Shown piece after piece: positions 1,301 through 36,815 of a DNA stretch of 36,815 nucleotides (the first letter of the stretch is position 1; each line of letters opens with the position of its first letter). The position numbers and the translations under genes are program-made. The stretch is taken from positions 1-36,815 of the IMG/VR virus record IMGVR_UViG_2617270943_000002; one strand, given 5' to 3'. This DNA comes from a virus (taxonomy: Duplodnaviria; Heunggongvirae; Uroviricota; Caudoviricetes). The notes under the pieces were generated by a model. The model did no database searches. It had not been told where the DNA came from and saw only the letters and a program-made list of their open reading frames with translations.

Positions 1301-1332
1301 GTGATCTTTATCGAATAATACACGAGGTGAAA

Positions 1333-19974: not shown

Positions 19975-22076
19975 TGCTGAATCAGGAAACCGCAAAGGCA
20001 GCACGAACCGATTCAGGTTATATCCTTCGCGCACCGAGACGAATGCGGGTTGCTGATGCCGTTGCTCAGTATATGCGGGTGCCCATGGGGGCAGGGAACT
20101 CAGTCCCGTGGGATCCGCTGGTGGCACCGTATGTTATTGAGCCGATGAACTGCCTGGCCTCGCGTGAATACGACGCAGTGATATTTGTTGGCCCGGCACG
20201 AACCGGCAAGACTATCGGCCTGATTGACGGCTGGGTGATTTACAACGTGATTTGCGATCCTGCTGATATGCTGATCATACAGATGACGGAGGAAAAAGCC
20301 CGCGAACACTCCAAAAAACGACTCGCCAGAACGTTTCGCGTCAGCCCGGAAGTGGTCAGTCGCCTGAGTCCGAACAAAAATGACAACAACGTTTATGACA
20401 GAACATTCCTTGCTGGTAACTACCTGAAAATCGGCTGGCCGTCAGTCAATATCATGTCCTCATCAGATTATAAATGCGTCGCGCTGACGGATTATGACCG
20501 TTTTCCGGAAGATATTGATGGCGAGGGGGATGCTTTCTCTCTTGCCTCAAAACGTACCACAACATTTATGTCCAGTGGTATGACGCTTGTGGAGAGTTCC
20601 CCCGGCAGGGATGTGAAGGATGTGAAATGGCGACGGACTTCACCGCATGAGGCTCCACCAACCACGGGGATACTGTCGCTCTATAACCGTGGCGATCGCC
20701 GTCGCTGGTACTGGCCTTGTCCACACTGTGGTGAGTATTTTCAGCCCTGCGGCGATGTGGTTGCTGGTTTCCGTGATATTGCCGATCCCGTGCTGGCAAG
20801 TGAGGCGGCTTATATTCAGTGTCCTTCCTGTTCAGGACGGATTATGCCTGAACAAAAACGTGAGCTGAACGGACGTGGGGTCTGGTTGCGGGATGGTGAA
20901 TCCATCAATGCGGATGGCAGTCGTTATGGTGATCCCCGACGCTCACGTATTGCGTCATTCTGGATGGAGGGTCCGGCAGCTGCTTACCAGACACTCTCGC
21001 AACTCGTTTACAAACTGCTTACTGCAGAACAGGAATACGAGACAACCGGAAGTGAAGAAACACTCAAGACGGTTATCAATACCGACTGGGGATTACCTTA
21101 TCTTCCCCGCGCCAGCATGGAGCAACGAAAAAGTGAACTGCTTGAGCAGCGGGCAGAGCCAGTTCCTTCCCGCAGTGTGCCGGATGGCGTTAATTTCCTT
21201 GTGGCGACAGTGGATGTGCAGGCGGGACGTCATCGCCGTTTTGTGGTTCAGGTAACGGGCTATGGCAGCCGTGGCGAACGCTGGATTATTGATCGTTACA
21301 ACATCACGCAGTCATTGCGCGGTGACAGCGACGGGGAGAGCCAGCGAATTGATCCGGCCAGCTATCCGGAAGACTGGGATGTCCTGCTGACGGATGTTTT
21401 TCATAAAAGCTGGCCGCTGGCCTCCGATCCTTCTCAACAAATGCGACTGATGGCAATGGCGGTGGACTCCGGCGGTGAAGACGGGGTCACTGATAATGCC
21501 TATAAATTCTGGCGTCGTTGCCGTCGTGATGGCCTTGGTAAACGTATTTACCTGTTTAAGGGCGACAGCATCCGGCGCGCAAAACTGATCACCCGTACAT
21601 TCCCTGATAACACCGGACGAACGGGCCGACGGGCGCAGGCCGCAGGTGATGTGCCGCTCTGGCTTCTTCAGACGGATGCACTGAAAGACCGGGTGAATAA
21701 CGCGTTATGGCGTGACTCGCCAGGTCCCGGCTATGTGCATTTCCCTGACTGGCTGGGGAGTTGGTTTTACGACGAACTGACGTATGAAGAGCGGAGCAGT
21801 GACGGGAAATGGAGTAAGCCAGGTCGCGGTGCCAACGAAGCTTTTGACCTGATGGTGTATGCCGAGGCTCTGGTCATTCTGCATGGATACGAAAAGATCC
21901 GCTGGCCGGATGCACCGGAGTGGGCGAGCCGGGAAACCTGGCTGGAGTGTGTCCCGGACAGTACCGAACCGTCACCCACACCGGAACCGGTATCCACGCC
22001 TGTTAAAAAACAAAAACGGAAGAAAACAGTAACTGACGATGTTAACCCCTGGCTGACTTCCGGAGGATGGTTATGA
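19974..22076 (+). CDS. Terminase large subunit (lambda gpA-like)
   Basis: 700 aa; Walker-A-like VGPARTGKT; WYWPCPHCGEYFQP parallels the lambda gpA CPHCGE motif. Confidence 0.85.
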   Translation: MLNQETAKAARTDSGYILRAPRRMRVADAVAQYMRVPMGAGNSVPWDPLVAPYVIEPMNCLASREYDAVIFVGPARTGKTIGLIDGWVIYNVICDPADMLIIQMTEEKAREHSKKRLARTFRVSPEVVSRLSPNKNDNNVYDRTFLAGNYLKIGWPSVNIMSSSDYKCVALTDYDRFPEDIDGEGDAFSLASKRTTTFMSSGMTLVESSPGRDVKDVKWRRTSPHEAPPTTGILSLYNRGDRRRWYWPCPHCGEYFQPCGDVVAGFRDIADPVLASEAAYIQCPSCSGRIMPEQKRELNGRGVWLRDGESINADGSRYGDPRRSRIASFWMEGPAAAYQTLSQLVYKLLTAEQEYETTGSEETLKTVINTDWGLPYLPRASMEQRKSELLEQRAEPVPSRSVPDGVNFLVATVDVQAGRHRRFVVQVTGYGSRGERWIIDRYNITQSLRGDSDGESQRIDPASYPEDWDVLLTDVFHKSWPLASDPSQQMRLMAMAVDSGGEDGVTDNAYKFWRRCRRDGLGKRIYLFKGDSIRRAKLITRTFPDNTGRTGRRAQAAGDVPLWLLQTDALKDRVNNALWRDSPGPGYVHFPDWLGSWFYDELTYEERSSDGKWSKPGRGANEAFDLMVYAEALVILHGYEKIRWPDAPEWASRETWLECVPDSTEPSPTPEPVSTPVKKQKRKKTVTDDVNPWLTSGGWL

Positions 22077-22285
22077 ACCAGAATGATATCGAAGCCATGA
22101 TTCAGCGTTATACGGAAGCTGAAATGGCGGTGCTGGACGGAAAATCCGTCACCTTTAATGGTCAGCAGATGACCATGGAAAACTTATCTGAGATCCGGCA
22201 GGGGCGGCAGGAGTGGGAGCGCCGCCTTGCGGCTCTGATTACACGACGACGGGGGCATCCCGGGTACCGGCTGGCGAGGTTCTGA
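22073..22285 (+). CDS. W: Head-tail joining protein gpW-like
   Basis: About 70 aa with C-terminal ...RRRGHPGY resembling the lambda gpW C-terminus (...RRRGPAGF); GGAGG RBS. Confidence 0.6.
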   Translation: MNQNDIEAMIQRYTEAEMAVLDGKSVTFNGQQMTMENLSEIRQGRQEWERRLAALITRRRGHPGYRLARF

Positions 22286-23760
22286 TGGTAATTCTTGATG
22301 ATGTGATTGGCGTTTTTTCACCAGGATGGAAAGCGGCAAGGCTGCGTTCCCGTGCGGTGATCCAGGCTTATGAGGCCGTAAAAACGACGCGGACACACAA
22401 AGCCCGGCGGGAAAACCGAACTGCCGACCAGTTAAGCCAGTACGGGGCCGTGTCGTTACGTGAGCAGGCCCGTTACCTTGATAACAACCACGATCTGGTC
22501 ATTGGTGTATTTGACAAGCTGGAAGAACGGGTGGTGGGGAAAAACGGGATTATTGTCGAGCCACATCCGGTATTACGCAATGGGGCCATTGCCCGTGACC
22601 TGGCTGCGGAGATTCGCACCCGATGGAGTGAATGGTCTGTCAGCCCGGAAGTCACCGGGCAGTTTACCCGTCCGATGCTGGAACGTCTGATGCTGCGTAC
22701 CTGGCTGCGCGATGGTGAGGTGTTTGCCCAGATGGTTTCCGGGCGCATAAACAGCCTGACGCCTTCTGCCGGTGTTCATTTCTGGCTGGAGGCACTCGAG
22801 CCGGACTTTATTCCCATGACCAGTGATGAGAGCAACAGGCTGAATCAGGGCGTGTTTGTTGATGACTGGGGGCGTCCCGAAAAATATCTGGTGTATAAAA
22901 GTCGTCCCGTATCCGGACGGCAGATGGAAACCAAAGAAGTGGATGCAGAGCGAATGCTGCATCTTAAATTTGTTCGCCGTCTGCACCAGATGCGCGGGAC
23001 GTCTTTGTTGTCCGGTGTGCTGATCCGCCTCAGTGCCCTGAAAGAGTATGAAGATTCTGAGCTGACTGCAGCAAGGATCGCCGCTGCTCTGGGGATGTAC
23101 ATCCGGAAAGGCGACGGGCAGAGCTATGAACCGGATGGTAATGGCAGCAAGGATAAGGAACGCGAGCTTACCATTCAGCCAGGCATTATTTACGACGATC
23201 TGAAACCCGGCGAAGAAATCGGAATGGTGAAGTCGGATCGTCCCAATCCTAACCTTGAAACTTTTCGTAATGGTCAGTTGCGTGCCGTGGCGGCGGGCAG
23301 TCGTCTGAGTTTTTCCAGTACGGCACGCAACTATAACGGCACTTACAGCGCCCAGCGTCAGGAGCTGGTTGAATCCACTGATGGCTACCTGATCCTGCAG
23401 GACTGGTTTATTGGTGCCGTCACCCGCCCGATGTATCGTGCCTGGCTGAAACAGGCTGTGGCATCCGGTGTTATCAGGCTACCCCGCGATCTTGACCGTT
23501 CTTCACTGTATACCGCGGTGTATTCCGGACCGGTGATGCCGTGGATTGACCCTGTTAAGGAGGCTGAGGCCTGGAAAATTCAGATTCGTGGTGGAGCGGC
23601 GACAGAATCAGACTGGGTACGTGCAGGTGGTCGTAATCCGGATGATGTCAAACGTCGGCGCAAGGCCGAAATTGATGAAAACCGCAAGCTGGATCTGGTA
23701 TTTGATACCGATCCGGCCAGTGATAAAGGAGGCAGCAGTGCCGCAACGAAACGACAGTAG
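22285..23760 (+). CDS. Portal protein (lambda-family)
   Basis: About 490-aa ORF following gpW; ATG overlaps the W stop (TGATG). Confidence 0.8.
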   Translation: MVILDDVIGVFSPGWKAARLRSRAVIQAYEAVKTTRTHKARRENRTADQLSQYGAVSLREQARYLDNNHDLVIGVFDKLEERVVGKNGIIVEPHPVLRNGAIARDLAAEIRTRWSEWSVSPEVTGQFTRPMLERLMLRTWLRDGEVFAQMVSGRINSLTPSAGVHFWLEALEPDFIPMTSDESNRLNQGVFVDDWGRPEKYLVYKSRPVSGRQMETKEVDAERMLHLKFVRRLHQMRGTSLLSGVLIRLSALKEYEDSELTAARIAAALGMYIRKGDGQSYEPDGNGSKDKERELTIQPGIIYDDLKPGEEIGMVKSDRPNPNLETFRNGQLRAVAAGSRLSFSSTARNYNGTYSAQRQELVESTDGYLILQDWFIGAVTRPMYRAWLKQAVASGVIRLPRDLDRSSLYTAVYSGPVMPWIDPVKEAEAWKIQIRGGAATESDWVRAGGRNPDDVKRRRKAEIDENRKLDLVFDTDPASDKGGSSAATKRQ

Positions 23761-25765
23761 CCGCAGCACACCGACGACCAGTCCGAAGAATAATTCCTGG
23801 TTCAGGATGCAGGCTGGTCACCAGAGTGACGCGGATATTTATATTTATGACGAGATTGGTTTCTGGGGTGTTACAGCGAAGCAGTTTATCAGTGATCTGA
23901 ATGCACTGGGCGATATCACCCACATTAATCTCCATATCAATTCACCGGGTGGCGATGTCTTTGAAGGCATCGCCATTTTTAATGCACTGAAAACACATGG
24001 TGCGTCCATTACCGTTTATGTCGACGGTGTGGCGGCGTCAATGGCGTCGGTCATTGCGATGGTGGGAAACCCGGTCATTATGCCGGAAAACACCTTCATG
24101 ATGATTCATAAACCATTTGGCTTTACGGGCGGTGATGCGGAGGACATGCGCACCTATGCCGACCTGCTCGATAAGGTTGAGGCGGTTCTGTTACCCGCTT
24201 ATGCACAGAAAACCGGGAAAACCACCGATGAAATTGCTGCCATGCTGGCAGATGAGACCTGGATGTCCGGTGCCGAATGTCTGGCACATGGATTTGCTGA
24301 TCAGGTGACGCCAGCCGTTAAGGCAATGGCATGTATTCAGTCAAAACGTACAGAGGAATTTAAAAAGATGCCGGAATCCATTCGAAACATGATTACTCCG
24401 CCACGCAACAGTGCTCCACGCGTACAGGATGATGAACCTGCAGCCTCCCGGACGCCAGTACAGGCAGCAGCACCCGTGGTGGATGAAAACAGTATCCGTG
24501 CGCAGGTACTGGCAGAGCAAAAAGCGCGTGTAAACGGTATTAATGATCTGTTTGCCATGTTTGGCGGGCGTTATCAGACGCTGCAGGCTCAGTGTCTTGC
24601 CGATCCTGAATGTTCGCTGGAGCAGGCCCGCGAAAAGCTGTTGAACGAGATGGGGCGCGAGTCCACGCCATCCAATAAAAATACACCGGCTCATATTTAT
24701 GCCGGTAACGGTAATTTTGTGGGGGACGGGATCCGCCAGGCGCTGATGGCGCGTGCCGGATTTGAAAAAACCGAACGTGATAATGTCTACAACGGGATGA
24801 CCCTGCGTGAATATGCCCGTATGTCACTGACTGAACGGGGTATTGGGGTTTCCAGTTATAACCCGATGCAGATGGTCGGTGCGGCGTTCACACACAGTAC
24901 GTCTGACTTCGGTAATATTCTGCTGGATGTTGCGAACAAAGCCATTCTGCAGGGCTGGGAAGATGCCCCTGAAACCTATGAACAGTGGACGCGGAAAGGT
25001 CAGTTGTCTGATTTTAAAATTGCCCATCGTGTGGGTATGGGGGGCTTCAGTGCTCTGCGTCAGGTGCGTGAAGGGGCGGAATATAAATACGTCACCACCG
25101 GAGATAAACAGGCCACTATTGCACTGGCGACCTATGGCGAGCTGTTCAGTATCACCCGTCAGGCCATTATCAATGATGATCTGAATATGCTGACCGATGT
25201 CCCGATGAAGCTGGGCCGTGCGGCGAAATCCACTATTGCCGATCTGGTTTATGCCATTCTGACGTCTAACCCGAAAATCTCCACAGATAATGTAAGTCTG
25301 TTCGATAAAGCGAAACATGCAAACGTACTGGAGAGCGCTGCAATGGACGTGGCATCGCTGGATAAAGCCCGCCAGTTGATGCGCGTTCAGAAAGAGGGGG
25401 AGCGTCATCTGAATATTCGTCCTGCGTTCGTACTGGTACCGACGGCGATGGAGTCTGTTGCTAACCAGGTCATTCGCTCCTCAAGTGTCAAGGGGGCTGA
25501 CATTAACGCCGGTATTATTAACCCGGTGAAAGATTTTGCGACCGTTATTGCAGAGCCTCGTCTTGATGATAACAGCCAGACCACCTTCTACCTGGCTGCG
25601 TCAAAAGGCTCCGATACGATTGAAGTGGCTTATCTCAACGGTGTGGATACGCCATATATTGATCAGATGGAGGGCTTCAGTGTGGATGGCGTGACAACGA
25701 AAGTGCGTATTGACGCCGGTGTCGCGCCAGTTGATCACCGCGGTCTGGTGAAATGTACGGCGTAA
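23738..25765 (+). CDS. Prohead protease (ClpP-like, S14) fused to HK97-fold major capsid protein
   Basis: N-terminal ClpP-like region (INSPGGDVFEGIAIFNAL..., VDGVAASMASVIAMVG, MMIHKP); long C-terminal capsid-like region; proposed GTG start at 23738 with AAGGAGG RBS 5 nt upstream (first in-frame ATG is at 23807). Confidence 0.75.
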   Translation: MPQRNDSSRSTPTTSPKNNSWFRMQAGHQSDADIYIYDEIGFWGVTAKQFISDLNALGDITHINLHINSPGGDVFEGIAIFNALKTHGASITVYVDGVAASMASVIAMVGNPVIMPENTFMMIHKPFGFTGGDAEDMRTYADLLDKVEAVLLPAYAQKTGKTTDEIAAMLADETWMSGAECLAHGFADQVTPAVKAMACIQSKRTEEFKKMPESIRNMITPPRNSAPRVQDDEPAASRTPVQAAAPVVDENSIRAQVLAEQKARVNGINDLFAMFGGRYQTLQAQCLADPECSLEQAREKLLNEMGRESTPSNKNTPAHIYAGNGNFVGDGIRQALMARAGFEKTERDNVYNGMTLREYARMSLTERGIGVSSYNPMQMVGAAFTHSTSDFGNILLDVANKAILQGWEDAPETYEQWTRKGQLSDFKIAHRVGMGGFSALRQVREGAEYKYVTTGDKQATIALATYGELFSITRQAIINDDLNMLTDVPMKLGRAAKSTIADLVYAILTSNPKISTDNVSLFDKAKHANVLESAAMDVASLDKARQLMRVQKEGERHLNIRPAFVLVPTAMESVANQVIRSSSVKGADINAGIINPVKDFATVIAEPRLDDNSQTTFYLAASKGSDTIEVAYLNGVDTPYIDQMEGFSVDGVTTKVRIDAGVAPVDHRGLVKCTA

Positions 25766-25788
25766 ACGTCGCAGACAACAACTCTGAT

Positions 25789-25808
25789 GGCCCGTAAGGG
25801 CTTTTTTT
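25789..25808 (+). terminator. Rho-independent terminator after the capsid gene
   Basis: GCCC-GTAA-GGGC stem-loop followed by TTTTTTT. Confidence 0.6.
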
Positions 25809-25851
25809 GTACCTGAAATCAGCCCCTGAACGGGGCTGTGCGGAGACAGTT

Positions 25852-26175
25852 ATGGCAAAGAATTTTGTAGAAGAAGGAAAAACGGTGGCGATTGTTGCCA
25901 GTGCAGCCATCAGCAGCGGAGATCTGGTGCAGGTGGGTGATGTTTTTGCGGTGGCGCTGACCGATATTCCACAGGGTGAAACAGGCGACGGCATGACCGA
26001 AGGTGTGTTTATGCTGCCTAAGCTGAAAACGGATGACATGAAAACGGGTAAGAAGGTTTATCTGAAGTCCGGAAAAGTTCAGCTGACTAACAGCGGCTCT
26101 GATCCGCTGGTCGGGGTTGTCTGGGCAGATGCCGGAACCAGTGCAGAAGAAGTGCCGGTAAAACTCAATGTCTGA
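25852..26175 (+). CDS. DUF2190-like head protein (108 aa)
   Basis: ATG 25852 with GGAGA RBS; pattern (...SGDLVQVGDVFAVAL...EGVFMLPK...G.KVYL...) typical of DUF2190 proteins found next to capsid genes. Confidence 0.55.
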   Translation: MAKNFVEEGKTVAIVASAAISSGDLVQVGDVFAVALTDIPQGETGDGMTEGVFMLPKLKTDDMKTGKKVYLKSGKVQLTNSGSDPLVGVVWADAGTSAEEVPVKLNV

Positions 26176-26511
26176 TCCCTTTTCCCGGCTGGCAGCGCGT
26201 ATGGATGCGATCACGGTTAGAAAGATGGGAAAGACAGCCTCGATTAATGATGCCGATATGACTGTGATCCCGGGAGAAACACTGGCAGAGCTGAATGCTC
26301 TGTCCGGACCTGCGGTATCTCTGGTGGTGTTTTCTTCGGGATGGCGATGTTTGCCCCGCAGTACAACATCGAGATCAATAACGATGGCACGAACGGGCAG
26401 ATAGGTCCGGCTGCCCTGAAGGTGGTTTATGACCTTGGGAAAAAAGCGGCAGCGGACTTTATGCAACAGCAGGCCCGTGATGGTGGTCGGTTAAGTGGAG
26501 CATATCGGTAA
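26168..26511 (+). pseudogene. Deletion junction: 5' portion of a small head/tail gene joined out of frame to the 3' end of the tail tape-measure gene (gpH C-terminal remnant)
   Basis: Frame A ORF 26168..26404 (MSDPFSRLAARMDAITVRKMGK...); a second frame, open from 26251 to the TAA at 26509-26511, encodes ...FAPQYNIEINNDGTNGQIGPAALKVVYDLGKKAAADFMQQQARDGGRLSGAYR, matching the lambda gpH C-terminus (...INNDGTNGQIGPAALKAVYD...); stop overlaps the gpM start exactly as H/M do in lambda. Confidence 0.55.
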
Positions 26512-26840
26512 TGGAGACGTTTCACTGGAAAGTGCGCCCGGATATGAATGTGGTATCAGAGCCGAAAGTGGTGACAGTGAAGCTGGGCGATGGTTATGAA
26601 CAGCGTCGTGCGGCGGGACTGAATAACCAGTTGTCGATTTACAGCGTGACGATACGTGTTCGTAAATGTGAACACCCATCTTTAAAAGCCTTTCTGGAAC
26701 GGCACGGTGGCGTCCGCGCATTTCAGTGGGCGCCACCTTATGACTGGAAGCCGATCAGGGTGGTTTGTCGTAAATGGTCGGCAAGCGTGGGGGCGTTGTG
26801 GGTAACCATAACGGCAGATTTTGAACAGGTCGTGGCATAG
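26511..26840 (+). CDS. M: Minor tail protein M
   Basis: 109 aa, near-colinear with lambda gpM (METFHWKVRPDMNVVSEPKVV...GDGYEQRRAAGLN...EFEQVVA). Confidence 0.9.
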   Translation: METFHWKVRPDMNVVSEPKVVTVKLGDGYEQRRAAGLNNQLSIYSVTIRVRKCEHPSLKAFLERHGGVRAFQWAPPYDWKPIRVVCRKWSASVGALWVTITADFEQVVA

Positions 26841-26849
26841 GAGTCTCTG

Positions 26850-27548
26850 ATGCAGGATATTCCACAGGAAACACATCATGAGACGACACGCCTCACTCAG
26901 TCAGCCCAGGTGGTGCTCTGGGAAATCGACCTGACAGAGGTCGGTGGAGAACGTTATTTTTTCTGTAATGAGCAGAACGAAAAAGGTGAGCCGGTTACCT
27001 GGCAGGGGCGGCAGTATCAGGCATACCCCATTCAGGGGACGGGATTTGAACTGAACGGCAAGGGCAGTGCTGCCCGTCCGACACTGACGGTTTCTAACCT
27101 GCACGGCATGGTCACGGGGATGGCGGAAGACCTGCAGAGTCTGGTCGGCGGAACGGTGGTCAGGCGTAAGGTTTACGCCCGTTTTCTGGATGCGGTGAAC
27201 TTCGTCAACGGAAACAGCGACGCCGATCCGGAGCAGGAGGTGATCAGCCGCTGGCGCATCGAGCAGTGCAGCGAACTGAGTGCGGTCAGTGCCTCCTTTG
27301 TGTTGTCCACACCGACGGAAACGGATGGTGCCGTTTTTCCGGGGCGCATCATGCTGGCTAATACCTGCACCTGGACCTATCGCGGTGATGAGTGCGGTTA
27401 TCACGGTCCGGCTGTCGCGGATGAATATGATCAGCCGACGTCCGATATCACGAAGGATAAATGCAGCAAATGCCTGAGTGGCTGTAAGTTCCGCAATAAT
27501 GTCGGCAACTTTGGCGGCTTCCTTTCCATTAACAAACTTTCGCAGTAA
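26850..27548 (+). CDS. L: Minor tail protein L
   Basis: 232 aa, lambda gpL-like, including the C-terminal Cys cluster. Confidence 0.9.
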   Translation: MQDIPQETHHETTRLTQSAQVVLWEIDLTEVGGERYFFCNEQNEKGEPVTWQGRQYQAYPIQGTGFELNGKGSAARPTLTVSNLHGMVTGMAEDLQSLVGGTVVRRKVYARFLDAVNFVNGNSDADPEQEVISRWRIEQCSELSAVSASFVLSTPTETDGAVFPGRIMLANTCTWTYRGDECGYHGPAVADEYDQPTSDITKDKCSKCLSGCKFRNNVGNFGGFLSINKLSQ

Positions 27549-27553
27549 ATCCC

Positions 27554-28297
27554 ATGACAGAGACAGAATCAGCGATTCTGGCGCACGCCCGGCGATGTGC
27601 GCCAGCGGAGTCGTGCGGCTTCGTGGTGAGAACGCCGGAAGGGGAAAGATATTTTCCCTGCGTGAATATCTCCGGTGAGCCGGAGGCGTATTTCCGGATG
27701 TCGCCGGAGGACTGGCTGCGGGCAGAGATGCAGGGTGAGATTGTGGCGCTGGTCCACAGCCACCCCGGTGGTCTGCCCTGGCTGAGTGAGGCTGACCGGC
27801 GGCTGCAGGTGCAGAGTGATTTGCCGTGGTGGCTGGTCTGCCGGGGGACGATTCATAAGTTCCGCTGTGTGCCGCATCTCACCGGGCGGCGCTTTGAACA
27901 CGGGGTGACGGACTGTTACACGCTGTTCCGGGATGCTTATCATCTGGCGGGGATTGAGATGCCGGATTTTCATCGCGAGGATGACTGGTGGCGTCACGGT
28001 CAGAATCTCTATCTGGATAATCTGGAGGCCACAGGGCTGTATCAGGTGCCGTTGTCATCAGCACAACCGGGCGATGTGCTGCTGTGCTGTTTTGGTTCAT
28101 CGGTGCCGAATCATGCCGCCATTTACTGTGGTGATGGCGAGCTGCTGCACCATATTCCTGAACAACTGAGCAAACGAGAGAGGTATACCGACAAATGGCA
28201 GCGACGCACACACTCCCTCTGGCGTCACCGGGCATGGCGCGCATCTGCCTTTACGGGGATTTACAACGATTTGGCCGCCGCATCGACCTTCGTGTGA
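27554..28297 (+). CDS. K: Tail assembly protein K (JAB/MPN plus NlpC/P60-like domains)
   Basis: HSHPGG (JAB-type) motif and a downstream Cys/His region; lambda gpK-like; 3' end as given by the ORF track overlaps gene I. Confidence 0.85.
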   Translation: MTETESAILAHARRCAPAESCGFVVRTPEGERYFPCVNISGEPEAYFRMSPEDWLRAEMQGEIVALVHSHPGGLPWLSEADRRLQVQSDLPWWLVCRGTIHKFRCVPHLTGRRFEHGVTDCYTLFRDAYHLAGIEMPDFHREDDWWRHGQNLYLDNLEATGLYQVPLSSAQPGDVLLCCFGSSVPNHAAIYCGDGELLHHIPEQLSKRERYTDKWQRRTHSLWRHRAWRASAFTGIYNDLAAASTFV

Positions 28298-28866
28298 AAA
28301 CGGGGGCTGAAGCCATTCGGGCGCTGGCCACACAGCTCCCGGCGTTTCGTCAGAAACTGAGCGACGGCTGGTATCAGGTACGGATTGCCGGGCAGGATGT
28401 CAGCACGTCCGGATTAACGGCGCAGTTACATGAGACTCTGCCTGATGGCGCTGTGATTCATATTGTTCCCAGAGTCGCCGGGGCCAAGTCAGGTGGCGTA
28501 TTCCAGATTGTCCTGGGGGCTGCCGCCATTGCCGGATCATTCTTTACCGCCGGGGCCACCCTTGCAGCATGGGGGGCAGCCATTGGGGCCGGTGGTATGA
28601 CCGGCATCCTGTTTTCTTTCGGTGCCAGTATGGTGCTCGGTGGTGTGGCGCAGATGCTGGCACCGAAAGCCAGAACTCCCCGTACACAGACAACGGATAA
28701 CGGCAAACAGAACACCTATTTCTCCTCACTGGATAACATGGTTGCCCAGGGCAATGTTCTGCCGGTTCTGTACGGTGAAATGCGCGTGGGGTCGCGGGTG
28801 GTCTCTCAGGAGATCAGCACGGCAGACGAAGGGGATGGTGGTCAGGTTGTGGTGATTGGTCGCTGA
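28195..28866 (+). CDS. I: Tail assembly protein I
   Basis: 223 aa, lambda gpI-like with a Gly/Ala-rich hydrophobic centre; start may be at a downstream ATG (e.g. 28234). Confidence 0.8.
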   Translation: MAATHTLPLASPGMARICLYGDLQRFGRRIDLRVKTGAEAIRALATQLPAFRQKLSDGWYQVRIAGQDVSTSGLTAQLHETLPDGAVIHIVPRVAGAKSGGVFQIVLGAAAIAGSFFTAGATLAAWGAAIGAGGMTGILFSFGASMVLGGVAQMLAPKARTPRTQTTDNGKQNTYFSSLDNMVAQGNVLPVLYGEMRVGSRVVSQEISTADEGDGGQVVVIGR

Positions 28867-28884
28867 TGAAAAACGTTTATGTGA

Positions 28885-28904
28885 AACCGCCTCCGGGCGG
28901 TTTT
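28885..28904 (+). terminator. Weak hairpin (AAACCGCC-TCCG-GGCGGTTT) between I and J
   Basis: Stem read directly; short T-run; may be an RNA structure rather than a terminator. Confidence 0.3.
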
Positions 28905-28925
28905 GTCGTTTATGGAGCGTGAGGA

Positions 28926-31900
28926 ATGGGTAAAGGCAGCAGTAAGGGGCATACTCCGCGCGAAGCGAAGGACAACCTGAAGTCCACGCAGTTGCTGAGT
29001 GTGATCGATGCCATCAGCGAAGGGCCGGTTGAAGGTCCGGTGGATGGATTAAAAAGCGTGCTGCTGAACAGTACGCCAGTGCTGGACAGTGAGGGGAATA
29101 CCAATATCTCCGGCGTCACGGTGGTGTTCCGGGCCGGTGAGCAGGAGCAGACACCGCCGGAGGGATTTGAATCCTCCGGCTCCGAGACGGTGCTGGGTAC
29201 GGAAGTGAAATACGACACGCCGATCACCCGGACCATCACGTCGGCAAACATTGACCGACTGCGTTTTACCTTCGGCGTGCAGGCACTGGTGGAAACCACC
29301 TCAAAGGGGGACAGGAATCCGTCGGAAGTCCGCCTGCTGGTTCAGATCCAGCGTAATGGTGGCTGGGTGACGGAAAAAGACATCACCATTAAGGGCAAAA
29401 CCACCTCGCAGTATCTGGCCTCGGTGGTGGTGGGTAACCTGCCGCCGCGCCCGTTCAATATACGGATGCGCAGGATGACACCGGACAGCACCACAGACCA
29501 GCTGCAGAACAAAACGCTCTGGTCGTCATACACCGAAATCATCGATGTGAAACAGTGCTACCCGAACACGGCACTGGTCGGCGTGCAGGTGGATTCGGAG
29601 CAGTTCGGCAGCCAGCAGGTGAACCGTAATTATCATCTGCGCGGGCGCATTCTGCAGGTGCCGTCGAACTATAACCCGCAGACGCGGCAATACAGCGGTA
29701 TCTGGGACGGAACGTTTAAGCCAGCATACAGCAACAACATGGCCTGGTGTCTGTGGGATATGCTGACCCATCCGCGCTACGGCATGGGGAAACGTCTTGG
29801 TGCGGCGGATGTGGATAAATGGGCGCTGTATGTCATCGGCCAGTACTGTGACCAGTCGGTGCCGGACGGTTTTGGCGGCACGGAGCCGCGCATCACCTGT
29901 AATGCCTGGCTGACCACACAGCGCAAGGCGTGGGATGTGCTCAGTGATTTCTGCTCGGCGATGCGCTGTATGCCGGTATGGAACGGGCAGACGCTGACGT
30001 TCGTGCAGGACCGACCATCAGATAAGGTGTGGACCTATAACCGCAGTAATGTGGTGATGCCGGATGATGGCGCGCCATTCCGCTACAGCTTCAGCGCCCT
30101 GAAGGACCGCCATAATGCCGTTGAGGTGAACTGGATTGACCCGAATAACGGCTGGGAGACGGCGACAGAGCTTGTGGAGGACACGCAGGCCATTGCCCGT
30201 TACGGTCGTAACGTCACGAAGATGGATGCCTTTGGCTGTACCAGCCGGGGGCAGGCACATCGCGCCGGGCTGTGGCTGATTAAAACAGAACTGCTGGAAA
30301 CGCAGACCGTGGACTTCAGCGTGGGCGCAGAAGGGCTTCGCCATGTGCCGGGCGATGTCATTGAAATCTGTGATGATGACTATGCCGGTATCAGCATCGG
30401 CGGGCGCGTGCTGGCGGTAAACAGCCAGACCCGGACGCTGACGCTCGACCGTGAAATCACGCTGCCATCCTCCGGTACCACGCTGATAAGCCTGGTTGAC
30501 GGAAGTGGCAATCCGGTCAGCGTGGAGGTTCAGTCCGTCACCGACGGCGTGAAGGTGAAAGTGAGCCGTGTTCCTGACGGCGTTGCTGAATACAGCGTGT
30601 GGGGGCTGAAGCTGCCGACGCTGCGCCAGCGCCTGTTCCGCTGCGTGAGTATCCGTGAGAACGACGACGGCACGTATGCCATCACCGCCGTGCAGCATGT
30701 ACCGGAAAAAGAAGCCATCGTGGATAACGGGGCGCACTTTGACGGTAACCAGAGCGGCACGGTGAATGGTGTCACGCCGCCAGCGGTGCAGCACCTGACT
30801 GCCGAAGTCACCGCAGACAGCGGGGAATATCAGGTGCTGGCGCGCTGGGACACGCCGAAGGTGGTGAAGGGCGTGAGCTTCCTGCTCCGTCTGACCGTAA
30901 CAGCGGATGACGGCAGTGAGCGGCTGGTCAGCACGGCCCGGACGACGGAAACCACTTACCGCTTCACACAACTGGCGCTGGGGAACTACAGGCTGACAGT
31001 CCGGGCAGTAAATGCGTGGGGGCAGCAGGGCGATCCGGCGTCGGTATCGTTCCGGATTGCCGCACCGGCAGCGCCGTCGCGGATTGAGCTGACGCCGGGC
31101 TATTTTCAGATAACCGCCACGCCGCATCTTGCGGTTTATGATCCGACGGTACAGTTTGAGTTCTGGTTCTCGGAAAAGCGGATTGCGGATATCAGGCAGG
31201 TTGAAACCACAGCACGCTATCTTGGCACGGCGCTGTACTGGATAGCCGCCAGTATCAATATCGAACCGGGCCATGATTATTACTTTTATATCCGCAGTGT
31301 GAACACCGTTGGCAAATCGGCATTCGTGGAGGCTGTTGGTCAGCCGAGTGATGATGCATCCGGTTATCTGGATTTTTTCAAAGGCGAGATAGGGAAAACC
31401 CATCTGGCTCAGGAGCTGTGGACGCAGATTGATAACGGTCAGCTTGCGCCTGACCTGGCTGAAATCAGGACGTCCATTACGGATGTCAGCAATGAAATCA
31501 CGCAGACCGTCAATAAGAAACTGGAAGACCAGAGTGCGGCAATTCAGCAGATACAGAAGGTTCAGGTTGATACAAATAATAACCTGAACAGCATGTGGGC
31601 TGTGAAGCTGCAGCAGATGCAGGACGGACGCCTTTATATCGCGGGTATTGGTGCCGGTATTGAGAACACCCCTGACGGCATGCAGAGTCAGGTGCTGCTG
31701 GCGGCGGACAGGATTGCGATGGTTAATCCTGCGAATGGCAACACAAAACCGATGTTTGTTGGTCAGGGCGATCAGATATTCATGAACGACGTGTTCCTGA
31801 AACGCCTGACGGCCCCCACCATTACCAGCGGTGGAAATCCACCGGCATTTTCCCTGACTCCGGACGGAAAGCTGACCGCTAAAAATGCGGATATCAGTGG

Positions 31901-32423
31901 CAGTGTGAATGCGAACGCCGGGACGCTCAACAATGTCACGGTAAATGAAAACTGTACGATTAAGGGCATGCTGGAGGCGACTCAGGTCAGAGGTGACTTC
32001 GTTAAAGCTGTATCCAAATCATTTCCGAAACAGGCTGGTACGTGGGGTAACACGGAAACACCAAACGGGACGGTTACAGTCACCATAAGCGATGATCATA
32101 ACTTTGACCGTCAAATCATTATTCCGCCCATTATCTTTAACGGAATAGCGTATAGCGATCCGGGAAGTGGTAATAACCCGGGAGGTACAAGATACACGGG
32201 TTATGGTTTTGAAGTTCGCAAAAACGGTGTATTAATCGCATCCAGAGAAACTAAAGGGGCTATTCCCGGTAGCTACAGTGCGGTTATTGATATGCCGAGT
32301 GGCAGGGGAAGCGTCACTCTGGAGTTTAAGGTTTTCCATAAAGGCAATCAGTGGGCAGGTAATATCACCGACTGTACGGTGATTGTGACCAAAAAAGCCG
32401 CTTCCGGCATCAGTATTCGTTGA
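28926..32423 (+). CDS. J: Host specificity protein J (central tail fibre)
   Basis: 1165 aa, lambda gpJ-like throughout most of its length, with fibronectin-type repeats in the distal third. Confidence 0.9.
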
Positions 32424-32444
32424 AATTGTTATAACCCATATAAG

Positions 32445-32469
32445 GGCACCAGAAATGGTGCCTTTTTTA
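32445..32469 (+). terminator. Rho-independent terminator after J
   Basis: GGCACC-AGAAAT-GGTGCC followed by TTTTTTATT. Confidence 0.7.
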
Positions 32470-32492
32470 TTGCAGAAAAGCGAGAGGTAATT

Positions 32493-33092
32493 ATGCGTAA
32501 ACTTTATGCCGCCATTTTGTCCGCAGCCATTTGTCTGGCCGTATCCGGTGCGCCTGCATGGGCATCTGAACATCAGTCCACGCTGAGCGCGGGGTATCTT
32601 CATGCCTTGACGAACGTTCCCGGCAGCGATGATCTTAACGGGATTAACGTGAAATACCGTTATGAGTTTACGGACACACTGGGGCTGGTGACGTCATTCA
32701 GCTATGCAGGAGACAAGAATCGCCAGCTTACCCGTTACAGCGATACCCGCTGGCATGAAGATTCAGTGCGTAACCGCTGGTTCAGCGTGATGGCGGGGCC
32801 GTCTGTGCGCGTGAATGAATGGTTCAGCGCGTATGCGATGGCGGGTGTGGCTTACAGCCGTGTTTCGACTTTCTCCGGGGATTATCTCCGCGTAACTGAC
32901 AACAAGGGGAAAAAGCACGATGTGCTGACCGGAAGTGATGACGGTCGCCACAGCAACACGTCTCTGGCGTGGGGGGCTGGCGTGCAGTTTAACCCGACCG
33001 AATCCGTGGCCATTGATATTGCTTATGAAGGCTCCGGCAGTGGTGACTGGCGCACTGACGGTTTCATCGTGGGTGTCGGTTATAAATTCTGA
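32493..33092 (+). CDS. lom: Lom outer-membrane protein (Ail/Lom family beta-barrel)
   Basis: 199 aa with signal peptide; essentially colinear with lambda Lom; ends in aromatic C-terminal residue (YKF). Confidence 0.9.
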
Positions 33093-33120
33093 TTAGCCAG
33101 GTAACACAGTGTTATGACAG

Positions 33121-33146
33121 CCCGCCGGTTCAGGCGGGCTTTTTTG
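33121..33146 (+). terminator. Rho-independent terminator after lom
   Basis: CCCGCC-GGTTCA-GGCGGG followed by CTTTTTTGT. Confidence 0.65.
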
Positions 33147-33156
33147 TGGGGTGAAT

Positions 33157-36100
33157 ATGGCAGTAAAGATTTCAGGTGTACTGAAAGACGGCACAGGAAA
33201 ACCGGTACAGAACTGCACAATCCAGCTGAAAGCAAAACGTAACAGCACCACGGTGGTGGTGAACACGCTGGCCTCAGAAAATCCGGATGAAGCCGGGCGT
33301 TACAGTATGGACGTTGAGTACGGTCAGTACAGCGTTATTCTGTTGGTGGAAGGATTCCCGCCGTCACATGCCGGGACCATCACAGTGTATGAAGATTCCC
33401 GACCCGGTACGCTGAATGATTTTCTCGGTGCCATGACGGAGGATGATGCCCGTCCGGAGGCACTGCGCCGTTTTGAGCTGATGGTGGAAGAGGTGGCGCG
33501 TAACGCGTCCGTGGTGGCACAGAACACGGCAGCCGCGAAGAAGTCAGCCAGTGATGCCAGCACATCAGCCCGTGAGGCGGCAACCCATGCGACTGATGCT
33601 GCAGGCTCAGCACGCGCAGCCAGCACGTCAGCCGGACAGGCCGCGTCGTCGGCTCAGTCAGCGACTTCCAGCGCAGGAACGGCATCAACAAAGGCCACTG
33701 AAGCATCAAAAAGTGCTGCCGCTGCAGAGTCCTCAAAAAGCGCGGCAGCTACCAGTGCCAGTGCCGCGAAAACGTCAGAAACGAATGCTGCAGCGTCACA
33801 ACAATCAGCAGCCACTTCTGCATCCACCGCGACCACGAAAGCGTCAGAAGCTGCCACCTCAGCCCGGGATGCGGCGGCTTCAAAAGAGGCGGCAAAATCA
33901 TCAGAAACGAACGCATCCTCGAGCGCCAGTAGCGCAGCTTCCTCGGCAACAGCGGCAGGAAATTCCGCGAAGGCGGCAAAAACGTCAGAGACGAACGCCA
34001 GGTCTTCTGAAACGGCAGCGGGACAGAGCGCCTCGGCTGCGGCAGGCTCAAAAACAGCGGCTGCGTCGTCTGCCAGTGCAGCGTCAACAAGTGCCGGGCA
34101 GGCCTCAGCCAGTGCCACCGCCGCCGGAAAATCGGCAGAAAGCGCCGCATCGTCTGCTTCAACAGCCACAACGAAGGCTGGCGAAGCCACTGAACAGGCC
34201 AGCGCAGCAGCGAGGTCTGCTTCCGCAGCGAAGACATCCGAAACGAACGCGAAAGCGTCGGAAACCAGCGCAGAATCCTCAAAAACGGCTGCCGCATCGT
34301 CCGCCAGTTCGGCGTCGTCATCGGCATCATCTGCGTCTGCTTCAAAAGATGAGGCGACCAGACAGGCGTCAGCAGCGAAGGGTAGCGCCACGACGGCATC
34401 CACGAAGGCGACAGAGGCAGCTGGCAGTGCGACGGCAGCAGCTCAGAGCAAAAGTACGGCGGAATCTGCAGCAACGCGCGCTGAGACAGCGGCAAAACGG
34501 GCAGAGGATATTGCATCCGCCGTGGCGCTTGAGGATGCGAGCACGACGAAAAAGGGGATAGTACAGCTCAGCAGTGCGACCAACAGCACTTCCGAGTCAC
34601 TGGCGGCAACGCCAAAAGCCGTTAAGGCCGCGTATGACCTGGCTAACGGGAAATACACCGCACAGGATGCAACGACAGCACAGAAAGGGATAATCCAGCT
34701 AAGCAGCGCGACCAACAGCACGTCTGAAACGCTGGCGGCAACGCCAAAGGCAGTAAAAGCAGCCAATGACAATGCTGAGAAACGTCTGCAGAAAGATCAG
34801 AACGGTGCGGATATCCCAGGCAAAGACACCTTTACGAAAAATATTGGTGCCTGCCGTGCCTTCGGTGGGTCAGTAAGCACAACAACAGGAAACTGGACGA
34901 CTGCACAGTTTATCGAGTGGCTGGATTCTCAGGGAGCATTTAACCATCCCTACTGGATGTGCAAGGGTTCCTGGTCTTATGGCAATAATAAAATCATTAC
35001 TGATACTGGCTGCGGTAATATTCATCTCGCCGGAGCTGTCATTGAAGTAATGGGGATAAAGTCAGCGATGACGATCCGCATTACCACACCGACCACCTCC
35101 ACTGGTGGTGGAACAACTAACGCCCAGTTTACCTATATTAATCACGGAACAGATTATTCACCTGGCTGGCGAAGGGACTATAACTCCAGAAATAAGCCAA
35201 CGGCATCAGAGATCGGGGCGTTACCGTCAGGTGGAACAGCAGTATCATCAGTTAATCTGTCTTCAAAAGGTCGGGTAACCGCGCTGACAGACAATACGCA
35301 GGGGGCAACAGGTCTTGAGTTATACGAGGTGTATAACAACGGATATCCAACAGCGTATGGAAATATCATTCACCTGAAAGGGATGACAGCCGTTGGCGAA
35401 GGTGAGTTACTCATCGGCTGGAGTGGTACAAGCGGTGCTCATGCTCCGGCATTTATTCGTTCACGACGGGATACGACCGACGCAAACTGGTCGCCGTGGG
35501 CGCAGCTTTACACCTCGGCTCATCCTCCTGCAGAGTTTTATCCAGTCGGTGCACCAATCCCGTGGCCATCAGATACCGTTCCGTCTGGTTATGCCCTGAT
35601 GCAGGGGCAGACTTTTGACAAATCTGCATACCCGAAACTTGCAGCCGCTTATCCGTCAGGCGTGATCCCTGATATGCGTGGCTGGACGATTAAGGGCAAA
35701 CCTGCCAGTGGTCGCGCCGTATTGTCTCAGGAACAGGACGGCATTAAATCGCACACCCACAGCGCCAGCGCATCCAGTACGGATTTGGGGACGAAAACCA
35801 CATCGTCGTTTGATTACGGAACCAAATCCACGAATAACACCGGGGCGCATACCCATAGTATTAGCGGGACCGCAAATAGTGCCGGTGCGCACCAACACAA
35901 GAGTTCCGGTGCATTTGGTGGCACGAACACGAGCATTTTTCCTAATGGTTATACTGCGATTTCAAATCTAAGCGCGGGGATTATGAGCACAACAAGCGGT
36001 ACTGGCCAGACTCGTAATGCAGGGAAGACATCATCAGATGGTGCTCATACCCACTCACTGTCCGGCACTGCTGCAAGCGCAGGTGCACACGCACATACTG

Positions 36101-36231
36101 TCGGTATTGGTGCTCATACGCACTCCGTTGCGATTGGTTCACATGGACACACCATCACCGTTAACGCTGCTGGTAACGCGGAAAACACCGTCAAAAACAT
36201 CGCATTTAACTATATTGTGAGGCTTGCATAA
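33157..36231 (+). CDS. stf: Side tail fibre protein Stf (mosaic; extended Ala/Ser-rich shaft and His-rich distal tip)
   Basis: N-terminus [80 protein letters not shown] and C-terminal ...[29 protein letters not shown] are lambda-Stf-like; ATG 33157 (GTG 33151 also possible). Confidence 0.85.
34552..34780 (+). repeat. Direct duplication of about 100 bp (129-bp period) within stf, encoding two copies of the motif KGI(V/I)[11 protein letters not shown](S/T)[11 protein letters not shown]
   Basis: Two near-identical DNA segments starting near 34552 and 34681. Confidence 0.8.
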
Positions 36232-36815
36232 TGGCATTCAGAATGAGTGAACAACCACGGACCATAAAAATTTATAATCTGCTGGCCGGAACTAATGAAT
36301 TTATTGGTGAAGGTGACGCATATATTCCGCCTCATACAGGTCTGCCAGCAAACAGTACCGATATTGCACCGCCAGATATTCCGGCTGGCTTCGTGGCTGT
36401 TTTCAACAGTGATGAGTCATCGTGGCATCTCGTTGAAGATCATCGGGGTAAAACGGTTTATGACGTGGCTTCCGGCAACGCGTTATTTATTTCTGAACTC
36501 GGTCCGTTACCGGAAAATGTTACTTGGTTATCGCCGGAAGGGGAGTTTCAGAAGTGGAACGGCACAGCCTGGGTGAAAGATGCAGAAGCAGAAAAACTAT
36601 TCCGGATCCGGGAGGCGGAAGAAACAAAAAACAGCCTGATGCAGGTAGCCAGTGAGCATATAGCGCCACTTCAGGATGCTGTAGATCTGGAGATCGCAAC
36701 GGAGGAAGAAACCTCATTGCTGGAAGCCTGGAAAAAATATCGGGTGTTGCTGAACCGTGTTAATACAACAACTGCACCGGATATTGAATGGCCAACAGTA
36801 CCCATTATCGAATAG
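36231..36815 (+). CDS. tfa: Tail fibre assembly protein Tfa
   Basis: 194 aa, lambda Tfa-like ([58 protein letters not shown]...); start overlaps the stf stop. Confidence 0.9.

Follow-up and report, generated by a model that had tools for sequence, protein, structure and literature searches.

The window, by which we mean the whole stretch of 36,815 nucleotides from a Caudoviricetes record (IMGVR_UViG_2617270943_000002), carries at its right-hand end J, lom, stf and tfa in the order of a lambdoid late operon, with a Tfa gene (PF02413) following the fibre gene as in lambda-type Stf loci (Table 1). The stf gene is a single open reading frame on the plus strand, which could start at GTG 33151 or ATG 33157 and ends at 36231. 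We placed its start at the ATG because this gives a protein beginning with MAVKISG, like lambda Stf, and because GGGGTG lies just upstream; counted from there the protein has 1,024 aa, and not about 1,026 as had been given before. The start of tfa overlaps the stf stop by 1 nt, and the window ends with the tfa stop codon. The hairpin between lom and stf has an 8-bp stem with 7 G-C pairs and is followed by TTTTTTG. Pfam matches in Stf were PF08400 (aa 1–134, E 1.4e-71), two copies of PF03406, and PF07484 (aa 798–845, E 6.5e-12), while an NCBIfam search with the whole protein and with its central module gave no match. The Pfam domains, the gene order and colinearity with Ur-lambda Stf bear out the side tail fibre identity proposed in the first-pass annotation. 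Genes for the tail tube, G/T and the tape measure are absent from the prophage in the window.

Table 1. Genes and modules at the stf locus of the window.
Feature	Position (nt)	Strand	Residues (aa)	Basis
J, central tail fibre / host specificity gene	28926–32423	+		1,165-aa ORF; annotated gpJ in near-identical loci
lom, Ail/Lom outer-membrane protein gene	32493–33092	+		PF06316, E 1.8e-120
Terminator-like hairpin and T-run between lom and stf	33119–33150	+		consensus match only
stf, side tail fibre gene	33157–36231	+	1,024 + stop	PF08400, PF03406 (two), PF07484; exact protein in NCBI; J-lom-stf-tfa order
N-terminal tail-attachment (collar) domain and linker	33157–33558	+	1–134	PF08400; 91% to lambda Stf 1–134
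Ala/Ser-rich shaft, ~46 heptads	33559–34521	+	135–455	unbroken, alanine core; corresponds to lambda proximal coiled coil 102–393 (PMC12617516)
Shaft extension, 105 residues (exactly 15 heptads)	34066–34380	+	304–408	gap in alignment with lambda Stf
First PF03406 tail-fibre repeat	34522–34665	+	456–503	Pfam; colinear with lambda's only copy
Second PF03406 repeat	34666–34800	+	504–548	start of P2 H / Mu S-like block
Central cassette A, beta-rich fibre domain	34801–35232	+	549–692	P2 H / P1 Sv' / Mu S' type
Central cassette B, second fibre domain	35233–35535	+	693–793	74% to P1 Sv' 67–153
gp37-type collar domain	35536–35796	+	794–880	PF07484; 91% to lambda, 85% to T4 gp37
His-rich needle (stem) including tip	35797–36228	+	881–1024	HxH motifs; stem 76–79% to lambda, 68–76% to T4
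Tip cassette, presumed receptor-contact region (56 aa)	35866–36033	+	904–959	aligns with T4 gp37 tip subdomain 932–959
tfa, tail fibre assembly chaperone, complete	36231–36815	+	194	PF02413, E 1.1e-43

Homology, architecture, periodicity, cassette boundaries and population frequency were read directly from the sequences. Aligned globally with Ur-lambda Stf (774 aa, from LC730321), the protein resolves into colinear blocks and breakpoints. Residues 1–303 are colinear with the reference at 83–91% identity by segment, as are 409–495 and, with indels, 796–1024; residues 304–408 are 105 extra shaft residues, and 496–795 have no Ur-lambda equivalent and stand in place of lambda aa 391–530. It is right to call the fibre a mosaic relative to lambda, with a lambda-Stf-like N-terminus and His-rich C-terminal tip. 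The two loci are alike in the N-terminal collar domain (91%), heptad shaft (81–83%), first PF03406 repeat (80%), gp37-type collar (91%), needle (76–79%), Tfa (93%) and the lom-stf-tfa arrangement. They differ in that only the window has the 15 additional heptads, the second PF03406 repeat and cassettes A and B, these cassettes replacing the lambda distal coiled coil (aa ~391–530). They also differ in the number of HxH motifs, 7 in the window and 8 in Ur-lambda Stf, in one SFDYGTK repeat that the window lacks, and in the tip cassette. The module layout agrees with the published Ur-lambda fibre model of a collar (1–91), a coiled coil (102–393), a hinge (394–422) and a distal domain (423–525) (PMC12617516).

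At the N-terminus, aa 1–94 match the Ur-lambda side-fibre collar domain in PDB 9E7M/9MGH (E 1.3e-51). The shaft was described earlier as a long low-complexity A/S/T-rich stretch. Its composition is as described (A 37%, S 25%, T 13%), but it is not merely of low complexity: autocorrelation showed a strict heptad repeat, in which all lags with z > 3 are multiples of 7 (mean z 8.5, against −1.3 elsewhere). Alanine fills one register in 45 of 45 heptads and the register three positions earlier in 33 of 46, and the 46 heptads run without interruption, which fits the long proximal coiled-coil shaft of a lambda-type Stf. The extension at aa 304–408 is 98–99% identical in phages PhiR34_1 and mEp460_ev081, and its best lambda match is 54% (lambda 192–295). 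Its identity to the rest of the shaft is 39–56%, with the top six matches at offsets that are multiples of 14 aa. The shaft is thus expanded when set against that of lambda; however, since both relatives carry the same 15 heptads, lambda is the short one in this comparison, and the extension is probably present in many other E. coli prophage Stfs.

The shaft leads into two PF03406 repeats. The first is 80% identical to lambda 351–394 and 87% to residues 211–255 of a P2 H homologue, and the second is 84% identical to residues 300–344 of that homologue. Residues 490–565 can be aligned with 97–172 of the 8JU3 chain, which belong to Mu S. An 11-residue motif had been reported here as tandemly duplicated. 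Two copies indeed exist (aa 464–500 and 508–544, spaced 44 aa), but they are not a fresh tandem duplication, which we rejected: they have 27 of 37 aa in common, their nucleotides are 68–77% identical, and Tandem Repeats Finder returned nothing between 33000 and 36400. Rather, they are two diverged Pfam repeats. The second copy in the window belongs with the P2 H-like block; in the P2 H homologue, too, the repeat is present twice, and its second copy leads straight into cassette A.

Cassette A has 80–81% identity with P2 H and with P1 Sv', and ~70% with 8JU3, the Mu(−) fibre of known structure. The match of Stf aa 539–695 covers 8JU3 residues 178–334, that is, the middle beta-domain of the P2 H / Mu S' / P1 S' fibre module. 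Cassette B is 61% identical to Gifsy-1 Stf and 77% to phage Goslar. In P1 Sv' cassette B comes before A according to blastp, the reverse of the window, and a common A-B order was thereby ruled out. An AF2 monomer model of aa 533–805 reached a pLDDT of 30.7 from the single sequence and 71.6 with an alignment of 45 sequences, the confidence for cassette B being moderate (pLDDT 38–74). The linkers flanking the central cassette lie at aa ~495–565 and ~766–795. The first-pass annotation regarded this segment as an inserted module not expected in lambda Stf. It does have no lambda counterpart; still, it is a replacement and not an insertion, as ~245 aa (549–793) take the place of the lambda distal coiled coil, and it consists of two known cassettes, one of the P2 H / P1 Sv' / Mu S' kind and one resembling P1 Sv' and Gifsy-1 Stf.

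P2 H, Mu G(−) S' (8JU3) and P1 C(−) S' are myovirus baseplate fibres, whose N-termini and distal receptor-binding ends differ from those of the window protein. The Mu and P1 fibre genes sit in invertible segments, and the homologous PF03406/cassette A junction in these phages carries gix/cix. In contrast, no gix/cix/pix-type crossover site (AAACC-NN-GGTTT core) was found in or near the window stf, including at that junction, and a scan for the core gave only two 1-mismatch matches (14682 and 31746), which is chance level. No adjacent Gin/Cin/Pin invertase was found; past tfa, an identical contig has a host GGDEF gene.

The distal end, aa 794–1024, matches PDB 2XGF (E 7.4e-83) and is 66% identical to T4 gp37 812–1026. 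It has the PF07484 collar, the HxH needle and the conserved C-terminal strand of a T4 gp37-type tip, the strand being identical to that of T4. Seven HxH motifs are present in both proteins, in the window at aa 866, 898, 912, 964, 978, 987 and 996, the first lying within the collar segment. The T4 gp37 needle holds seven histidine-coordinated irons along its length (PMC6957217), and by analogy the seven motifs of the window Stf would match these and may bind iron. T4 assembly needs gp38/gp57, whereas the window stf has a lambda-type Tfa gene downstream. The tip cassette is flanked by HxH stem segments, and the T4 subdomain at its place has an unrelated sequence, shorter by about 15 aa. Its DNA has no detectable similarity to that of mEp460_ev081 or PhiR34_1, while the flanks are 93–98% identical; likewise, aa 915–960 gave no significant match to lambda, T4, mEp460_ev081 or PhiR34_1, so the tip is not one shared with these phages. 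The same tip allele was found in mEp332 (98%), ev099 (96%) and 995 of 5,426 E. coli genomes. The central module had been put forward as the cause of a possibly altered host range. Judging from sequence variation, receptor specificity is most likely set instead by the tip cassette, which differs from lambda, T4, mEp460_ev081 and PhiR34_1. The Ur-lambda fibre is a trimer that quickens adsorption through OmpC, to which its gp37-like receptor-binding domain binds (PMC12617516), and by analogy the receptor would most likely be a porin such as OmpC and/or LPS. Binding of OmpC itself is not assured, because the tip cassette differs from those of lambda and T4, on which this suggestion is based.

The Stf of the window is already known. 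Its exact protein is deposited in NCBI within a 90% cluster of 4,246 members, identical or near-identical entries being named E. coli 'phage tail protein' (e.g. EFA4826072.1), and closely related variants occur widely in E. coli. The exact protein lies in complete tail modules in five other assemblies, and near-full-length copies of stf were found in phage mEp460_ev081 and in 636 of 5,426 complete E. coli genomes. The mEp460_ev081 Stf (LR597641.1) is colinear over its full length (1,023 vs 1,024 aa, 94% aa identity) in the same gene order; the DNA is 97.6% identical over aa 1–903 and 95.8% from aa 960 into tfa, and only the tip cassette is a different allele. The first-pass annotation would take full-length colinearity with a single known tail-fibre type as refuting its proposal, and mEp460_ev081 Stf is such an already sequenced type, besides the identical deposited protein.

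A second, longer type is represented by PhiR34_1 (1,132 aa) and ev099. It shares with the window the N-terminal domain and the whole expanded shaft (98–100% protein identity; DNA ~96% over aa 1–494), as well as a conserved collar and needle, but its central cassette is different and longer (~355 aa), and PhiR34_1 has a single PF03406 repeat. The window and mEp460_ev081 have the same central cassette with different tips, the window and ev099 have the same tip with different central cassettes, and PhiR34_1 differs from the window in both. All four combinations are thus present among these four phages. In sequenced phages, then, central and tip cassettes are exchanged independently of each other, and the recombinational shuffling suggested earlier is directly visible. 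In the laboratory, lambda recombines with Rac and Qin across stf/tfa (PMC3945230). A literature search on the mEp460, mEp332 and PhiR phages found no functional work on their fibres.

Taken together, stf is in all likelihood an intact side-tail-fibre gene of a lambda-like E. coli prophage, ordinary in kind and built from known modules. By likeness to the fibres above, we infer a homotrimer which would speed reversible adsorption to the cell surface before J engages its receptor. The lambda-type domain at aa 1–134 would clamp the fibre to the tail as part of the collar, and the 46-heptad alanine-core coiled coil would form a rigid proximal shaft, longer than that of lambda by an estimated ~15 nm owing to the 15 additional heptads. 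The two PF03406 repeats may act as a hinge or transition, beyond which the distal coiled coil of lambda would be replaced by a pair of beta-rich cassettes resembling P2 H, Mu S' and P1 S'. A T4 gp37-type collar would follow, and then a putative iron-binding HxH needle and tip, with the 56-aa variable cassette presumably facing the receptor. Folding of the trimer would be chaperoned by the co-translated Tfa. The gene was probably assembled, and may still be reassorted, by homologous recombination in the conserved linkers flanking each cassette.

Two other readings concern the repetitive DNA of the shaft. That the expanded shaft or the duplicated motif arose as an assembly artefact might be suspected from the repetitive composition of the region, but the best internal DNA pair is 107 nt at 77% identity, and there are no high-identity repeats able to collapse or expand. 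Moreover, the identical 1,024-aa protein is present on at least 24 independent contigs, complete genomes match the 3,075 nt gap-free in a single piece, and the same 105 aa occur in PhiR34_1 and mEp460_ev081. We consider this origin hardly conceivable, and shaft length as an artefact is effectively refuted. Several long ORFs on both strands overlap the shaft, and one of them, above all an antisense frame open for 256 codons, might be a real gene comparable to lambda orf206b. Its openness was reached by none of 1,000 synonymous-codon shuffles, and lambda and the other relatives examined likewise keep this frame open. However, the openness traces to avoidance of the NCT|A codon pair (1 observed, 9.5 expected), and the other late genes avoid it as well, J, terL, portal, MCP, L, K, lom and the remainder of stf giving 14 in total against ~44 expected, while low-GC genes do not. 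Divergence from lambda at four-fold sites is 0.30 in the shaft and 0.27 in the N-terminal domain, and so is not reduced in the shaft; the remaining alternative frames agree with the shuffles, and three frames cannot all code. On the general NCT|A avoidance and the unreduced synonymous divergence, we rejected an antisense gene as the cause of the open −2 frame; its probability is extremely small. These results support the view that the overlapping ORFs are compositional by-products, and they had rightly been called spurious.

The other alternatives accept the gene and its modules and concern what the fibre does. The central module (aa 549–793) could itself bind a receptor at a second site, for instance LPS core like the P2 and Mu fibres it resembles, making the fibre bivalent and the module a driver of host range. 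The phages whose fibres supplied cassette A (P2 H, Mu S', P1 S') bind LPS, and the central cassette is swapped between otherwise near-identical fibres, as diversifying selection could give. But the resemblance to the Mu(−) fibre stops after 8JU3 residue 334, which leaves the distal end of the Mu chain without a counterpart in the window Stf, and beyond the module the fibre has a full gp37-type tip that brings a variable cassette of its own. P1 Sv' and the P2 H homologue also have the cassettes in an internal position, P1 Sv' in opposite order, and the cassettes therefore look like interchangeable shaft beads. A second site is accordingly improbable, and it is just as doubtful that the fibre is bivalent or length-tuned, with central cassettes making a secondary, lateral LPS contact and the 15-heptad extension selected to reach the outer membrane past O-antigen or capsule. 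On that reading the length of the shaft, the central cassette and the tip cassette would each reassort independently as a determinant of host range, and the lambda fibre would be a shortened form belonging to a laboratory host. More evenly balanced is whether stf is here an inert relic in a tail-defective hybrid prophage, never deployed on a virion and at most a recombination reservoir for superinfecting lambdoid phages; we give this about an even chance. With tube, G/T and tape-measure genes missing, the fibre cannot mount on a tail made by the window element alone. Compared with strain MB56, the window is missing ~5.5 kb, a stretch which there carries head-tail, tube (V), G, T and tape-measure genes. 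Across the junction, identity to MB56 drops from 99.94% to 98.26%; draft assembly GCA_000703725.1 has this junction too, at 100% identity, and lambda picks up stf/tfa DNA from defective prophages (PMC3945230). On the other side, both stf and tfa are intact, and copies with the same stf sequence lie in complete tail modules. The junction is known from draft contigs and was found in 0 of 5,426 complete genomes, so that a mis-join is possible.

That tail fibres are mosaic among lambda, P2, Mu, P1 and T4 has stood in textbooks since about 1990, and the discovery value of the window stf is small. The practical value lies in a clean module map with breakpoints, which comprises the heptad-quantised shaft, the central-cassette linkers and the HxH stem segments around the tip cassette. 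The map also cautions annotators against long ORFs that overlap the shaft. Its natural joints fall where fusions have been made in engineering lambda particles for new host ranges. A functional lambda-P2 Stf chimera joined lambda R393 to P2 H residue 251 (PMC11338833), which is essentially the natural junction in the window stf.

Judged from its sequence, the side tail fibre gene (stf) of the window is an intact and ordinary lambdoid side-tail-fibre gene made of catalogued modules, and its type has already been sequenced and is widespread. The exact 1024-aa protein was found in NCBI (e.g. EFA4826072.1) and on at least 24 contigs, with a 90% cluster of 4246 members. Of 5426 complete E. coli genomes, 636 had a match covering at least 80% of stf; the top match was 99.4% identical, without gaps and of the same length, 3075 nt. 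Seven phage records also covered at least 80% of stf, including mEp460_ev081, PhiR26_1, PhiR68_2 and Salmonella phage SPF_0923. Therefore, the protein was known before, and the worry that its repeat length is an assembly artefact can be dismissed, given the exact copies and the gap-free matches of the same length.

ORF calling gave a single stf ORF in the gene order J-lom-stf-tfa, the same as in lambda (J, central tail fibre; tfa, tail fibre assembly chaperone), and the start of tfa overlaps the stop of stf by 1 base. The ATG at 33157 yields MAVKISG..., the same start as lambda Stf, and follows GGGGTG, so the protein has 1024 aa. The length of about 1026 aa in the first-pass annotation came from a GTG 6 bases upstream of this ATG. 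A strong terminator-like hairpin was also observed at 33119-33150 (+), with an 8-bp stem (7 G-C pairs) and a T-run after it, ending 6-16 nt before the start codon; expression of stf and tfa would thus presumably depend on Q-antiterminated late transcription passing this hairpin.

Features of the window and of the side tail fibre protein (Stf), with the basis or relationship of each
Feature	Position	Strand	Basis or relationship
DNA methyltransferase	16172-17224		PF01555
J, upstream of stf	28926-32423	+	ORF calling
lom	32493-33092	+	PF06316, E 1.8e-120
stf, single ORF	33157-36231	+	ORF calling
tfa, complete, 194 aa	36231-36815	+	PF02413, E 1.1e-43
N-terminal tail-attachment domain	Stf aa 1-134		Pfam, PF08400
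Tail-fibre repeats (two)	Stf		Pfam, PF03406
Collar domain	Stf aa 798-845		Pfam, PF07484
Cassette A	Stf aa 549-692		P2 H homologue 80%, P1 Sv' 81%, Mu and D108 S' 71-72%
Cassette B	Stf aa 693-793		P1 Sv' 74%, Gifsy-1 Stf 61%, phage Goslar 77%
Lambda alignment	Stf aa 1-303		Colinear, 83-91% identity by segment
Lambda alignment	Stf aa 304-408		105 additional shaft residues
Lambda alignment	Stf aa 409-495		Colinear
Lambda alignment	Stf aa 496-795		Without lambda counterpart
Lambda alignment	Stf aa 796-1024		Colinear with lambda 531-774; His-rich part with indels

Stf was aligned globally with the intact 774-aa Stf of an Ur-lambda-type record (LC730321), and identities were taken per segment. Because of this alignment, the earlier description of a fibre mosaic with respect to lambda can be called accurate. 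The central segment is indeed absent from lambda, but it is not an insertion, as it stands in place of lambda aa ~391-530.

The shaft (aa 135-455) consists of Ala (37%), Ser (25%) and Thr (13%), in agreement with the A/S/T-rich stretch first described, but it is not merely of low complexity. In its autocorrelation over lags 1 to 126, all lags with z > 3 were multiples of 7, and the mean z was 8.5 for multiples of 7 versus -1.3 for other lags. Ala occupies 45 of 45 heptads in one register, and 33 of 46 in the register three positions earlier. The shaft is an unbroken alanine-core heptad repeat of about 46 heptads. The 105 additional residues make exactly 15 heptads. Standard coiled-coil geometry is about 0.15 nm per residue, by which these heptads would lengthen the fibre by roughly 15 nm. 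PhiR34_1 and mEp460_ev081 carry the same 105 residues with 98-99% identity, and lambda is the short variant among the relatives compared (the window, PhiR34_1 and mEp460_ev081). This piece showed 39-56% identity to the remaining shaft, and its six best matches were each offset by a multiple of 14 residues, suggesting an old internal duplication. The window shaft corresponds to the proximal coiled coil of the Ur-lambda fibre model, lambda residues 102-393 (PMC12617516).

The two [11 protein letters not shown] segments (aa 464-500 and aa 508-544) are the two PF03406 repeats. They share 27 of 37 residues, so two copies are present as claimed; however, their nucleotides are only 68-77% identical, and Tandem Repeats Finder reported no repeat for the stf region, which does not fit a fresh tandem duplication. 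Lambda Stf has a single copy, colinear with copy 1 of the window, and PhiR34_1 also has just one. The second copy of a P2 H homologue (OU784750.1) is 84% identical to window copy 2, and in both proteins copy 2 runs directly into cassette A. The end of the constant part of Mu S also aligns with window copy 2.

In a search against the sequences of solved structures, aa 539-695 aligned with residues 178-334 of PDB 8JU3, the tail fibre of phage Mu G(-) (PMC11821841), at 70% identity over 155 residues (77% for the core). By tblastn and blastp, the central module divides into two cassettes, A and B. Cassette A also showed ~47-50% identity to the gp37 fibres of KVP40-type Vibrio phages. P1 Sv' has cassette B upstream of cassette A, whereas the window has A and then B, so the cassettes behave as independent beads. 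The homologous junction of Mu and P1 holds an invertase crossover site; none was found in the window stf.

The C-terminal part (aa 794-1024) showed 66% identity to the T4 gp37 tip structure 2XGF (E 7.4e-83) and 69% to lambda. Seven HxH motifs were found in the window Stf, as in mEp460_ev081 and PhiR34_1, while lambda has eight; seven is also the number of histidine-coordinated irons along the T4 needle (PMC6957217). The tip subdomain of T4 (residues 932-959) is believed to contain the binding sites for LPS and OmpC (PMC6957217). Its counterpart at about aa 915-957 of Stf was not significantly similar to T4, lambda, mEp460_ev081 or PhiR34_1. At the DNA level, mEp460_ev081 was 97.6% identical to the window over aa 1-903 and 95.8% from aa 960 into tfa, with no detectable similarity over aa 904-959, the presumed receptor-contact region. 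Phages mEp332 (98%) and ev099 (96%) share the window tip allele, as do 995 of 5426 complete E. coli genomes.

Two forms of the central cassettes (type 1, shared by the window with mEp460_ev081; type 2, shared by ev099 with PhiR34_1) and two tip alleles (X, shared by the window with ev099; Y, shared by mEp460_ev081 with PhiR34_1) occur in all four combinations, a pattern that requires exchange between the central and tip cassettes. This upholds the proposed recombinational shuffling and mosaicism, but the central module, to which a possible change of host range had been linked, is unlikely to be what determines host range. The breakpoints fall within conserved linkers (aa ~495-565, aa ~766-795 and segments of the HxH stem). 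Published work fits this picture: Rac and Qin prophages recombine with lambda across stf/tfa, and stf exchange among unrelated phages is ancient and well documented (PMC3945230). A functional lambda-P2 fibre has been engineered by joining lambda R393 to residue 251 of P2 H (PMC11338833), and the natural joint of the window is essentially at this fusion point.

In four of the five alternative shaft frames, shuffling of codon order or of synonymous codons gave open stretches like those observed. One antisense frame stayed open for 256 codons, a length that 0 of 1000 shuffles reached (mean 93), and the same frame is open in lambda and the other relatives too. This opening is explained by a general avoidance of NCT|A codon pairs, which read CTA across the codon boundary. 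Only 1 was observed versus 9.5 expected, and in the late genes J, terL, portal, MCP, L, K, lom and the rest of stf (19974-36228) there were 14 versus ~44 expected, about three-fold rarer. No such avoidance was seen in int or the 870-aa ORF, both of low GC. Divergence from lambda at four-fold sites was 0.30 in the shaft, no lower than in the N-terminal domain (0.27). An overlapping antisense gene was thus rejected, and the overlapping ORFs are spurious, as first supposed.

Window 23157-36815 was 100% identical to a 447-kb contig of draft assembly GCA_000703725.1, where a GGDEF gene comes after tfa, with bioA-bioD and uvrB beyond it. Compared with E. coli MB56 (NZ_CP073936.1), the nearest complete genome, window 1-26342 was 99.94% identical and 26335-36793 98.26%. 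About 5.5 kb is absent between these blocks, whose flanks overlap by 8 nt (26335-26342); in MB56 this stretch comprises two tail genes, the tail tube, G and T, plus the 3' part of a head-tail gene and almost the entire tape-measure gene. With these genes missing, the prophage as written would be unable to build a tail, unless the draft contig is mis-joined. The junction was contiguous in 0 of 5426 complete E. coli genomes and was found with 100% identity in the same draft assembly. An identical stf lies in complete tail modules of five other assemblies. The MB56 prophage is sited between yjjG and prfC, while the right end of the window in the draft contig abuts the GGDEF gene, the bio operon and uvrB, a side taken to be that of lambda attB. 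The identity step and the differing flanks suggest that two prophages may have formed a hybrid or undergone rearrangement with each other.

An 870-aa ORF of low GC (0.32-0.35) adjoins the integrase gene at 1327-3939 (+). It has a PF00035 dsRNA-binding motif (aa 144-210), an HNH_2 nuclease domain (aa 773-822) and weak PADLOC HNH matches. It is annotated as two CDSs in MB56, and in other strains the genes annotated under the matching region include the defence gene dsr1. A role in defence, or as cargo at a hotspot, is possible for this ORF. Two adjacent ORFs of 308 and 182 aa (14092-15553, -; GC ~0.32) lie between the Q antiterminator and DNA methyltransferase genes. They had no Pfam or PADLOC match, are hypothetical in the MB56 annotation, and look like a putative moron.
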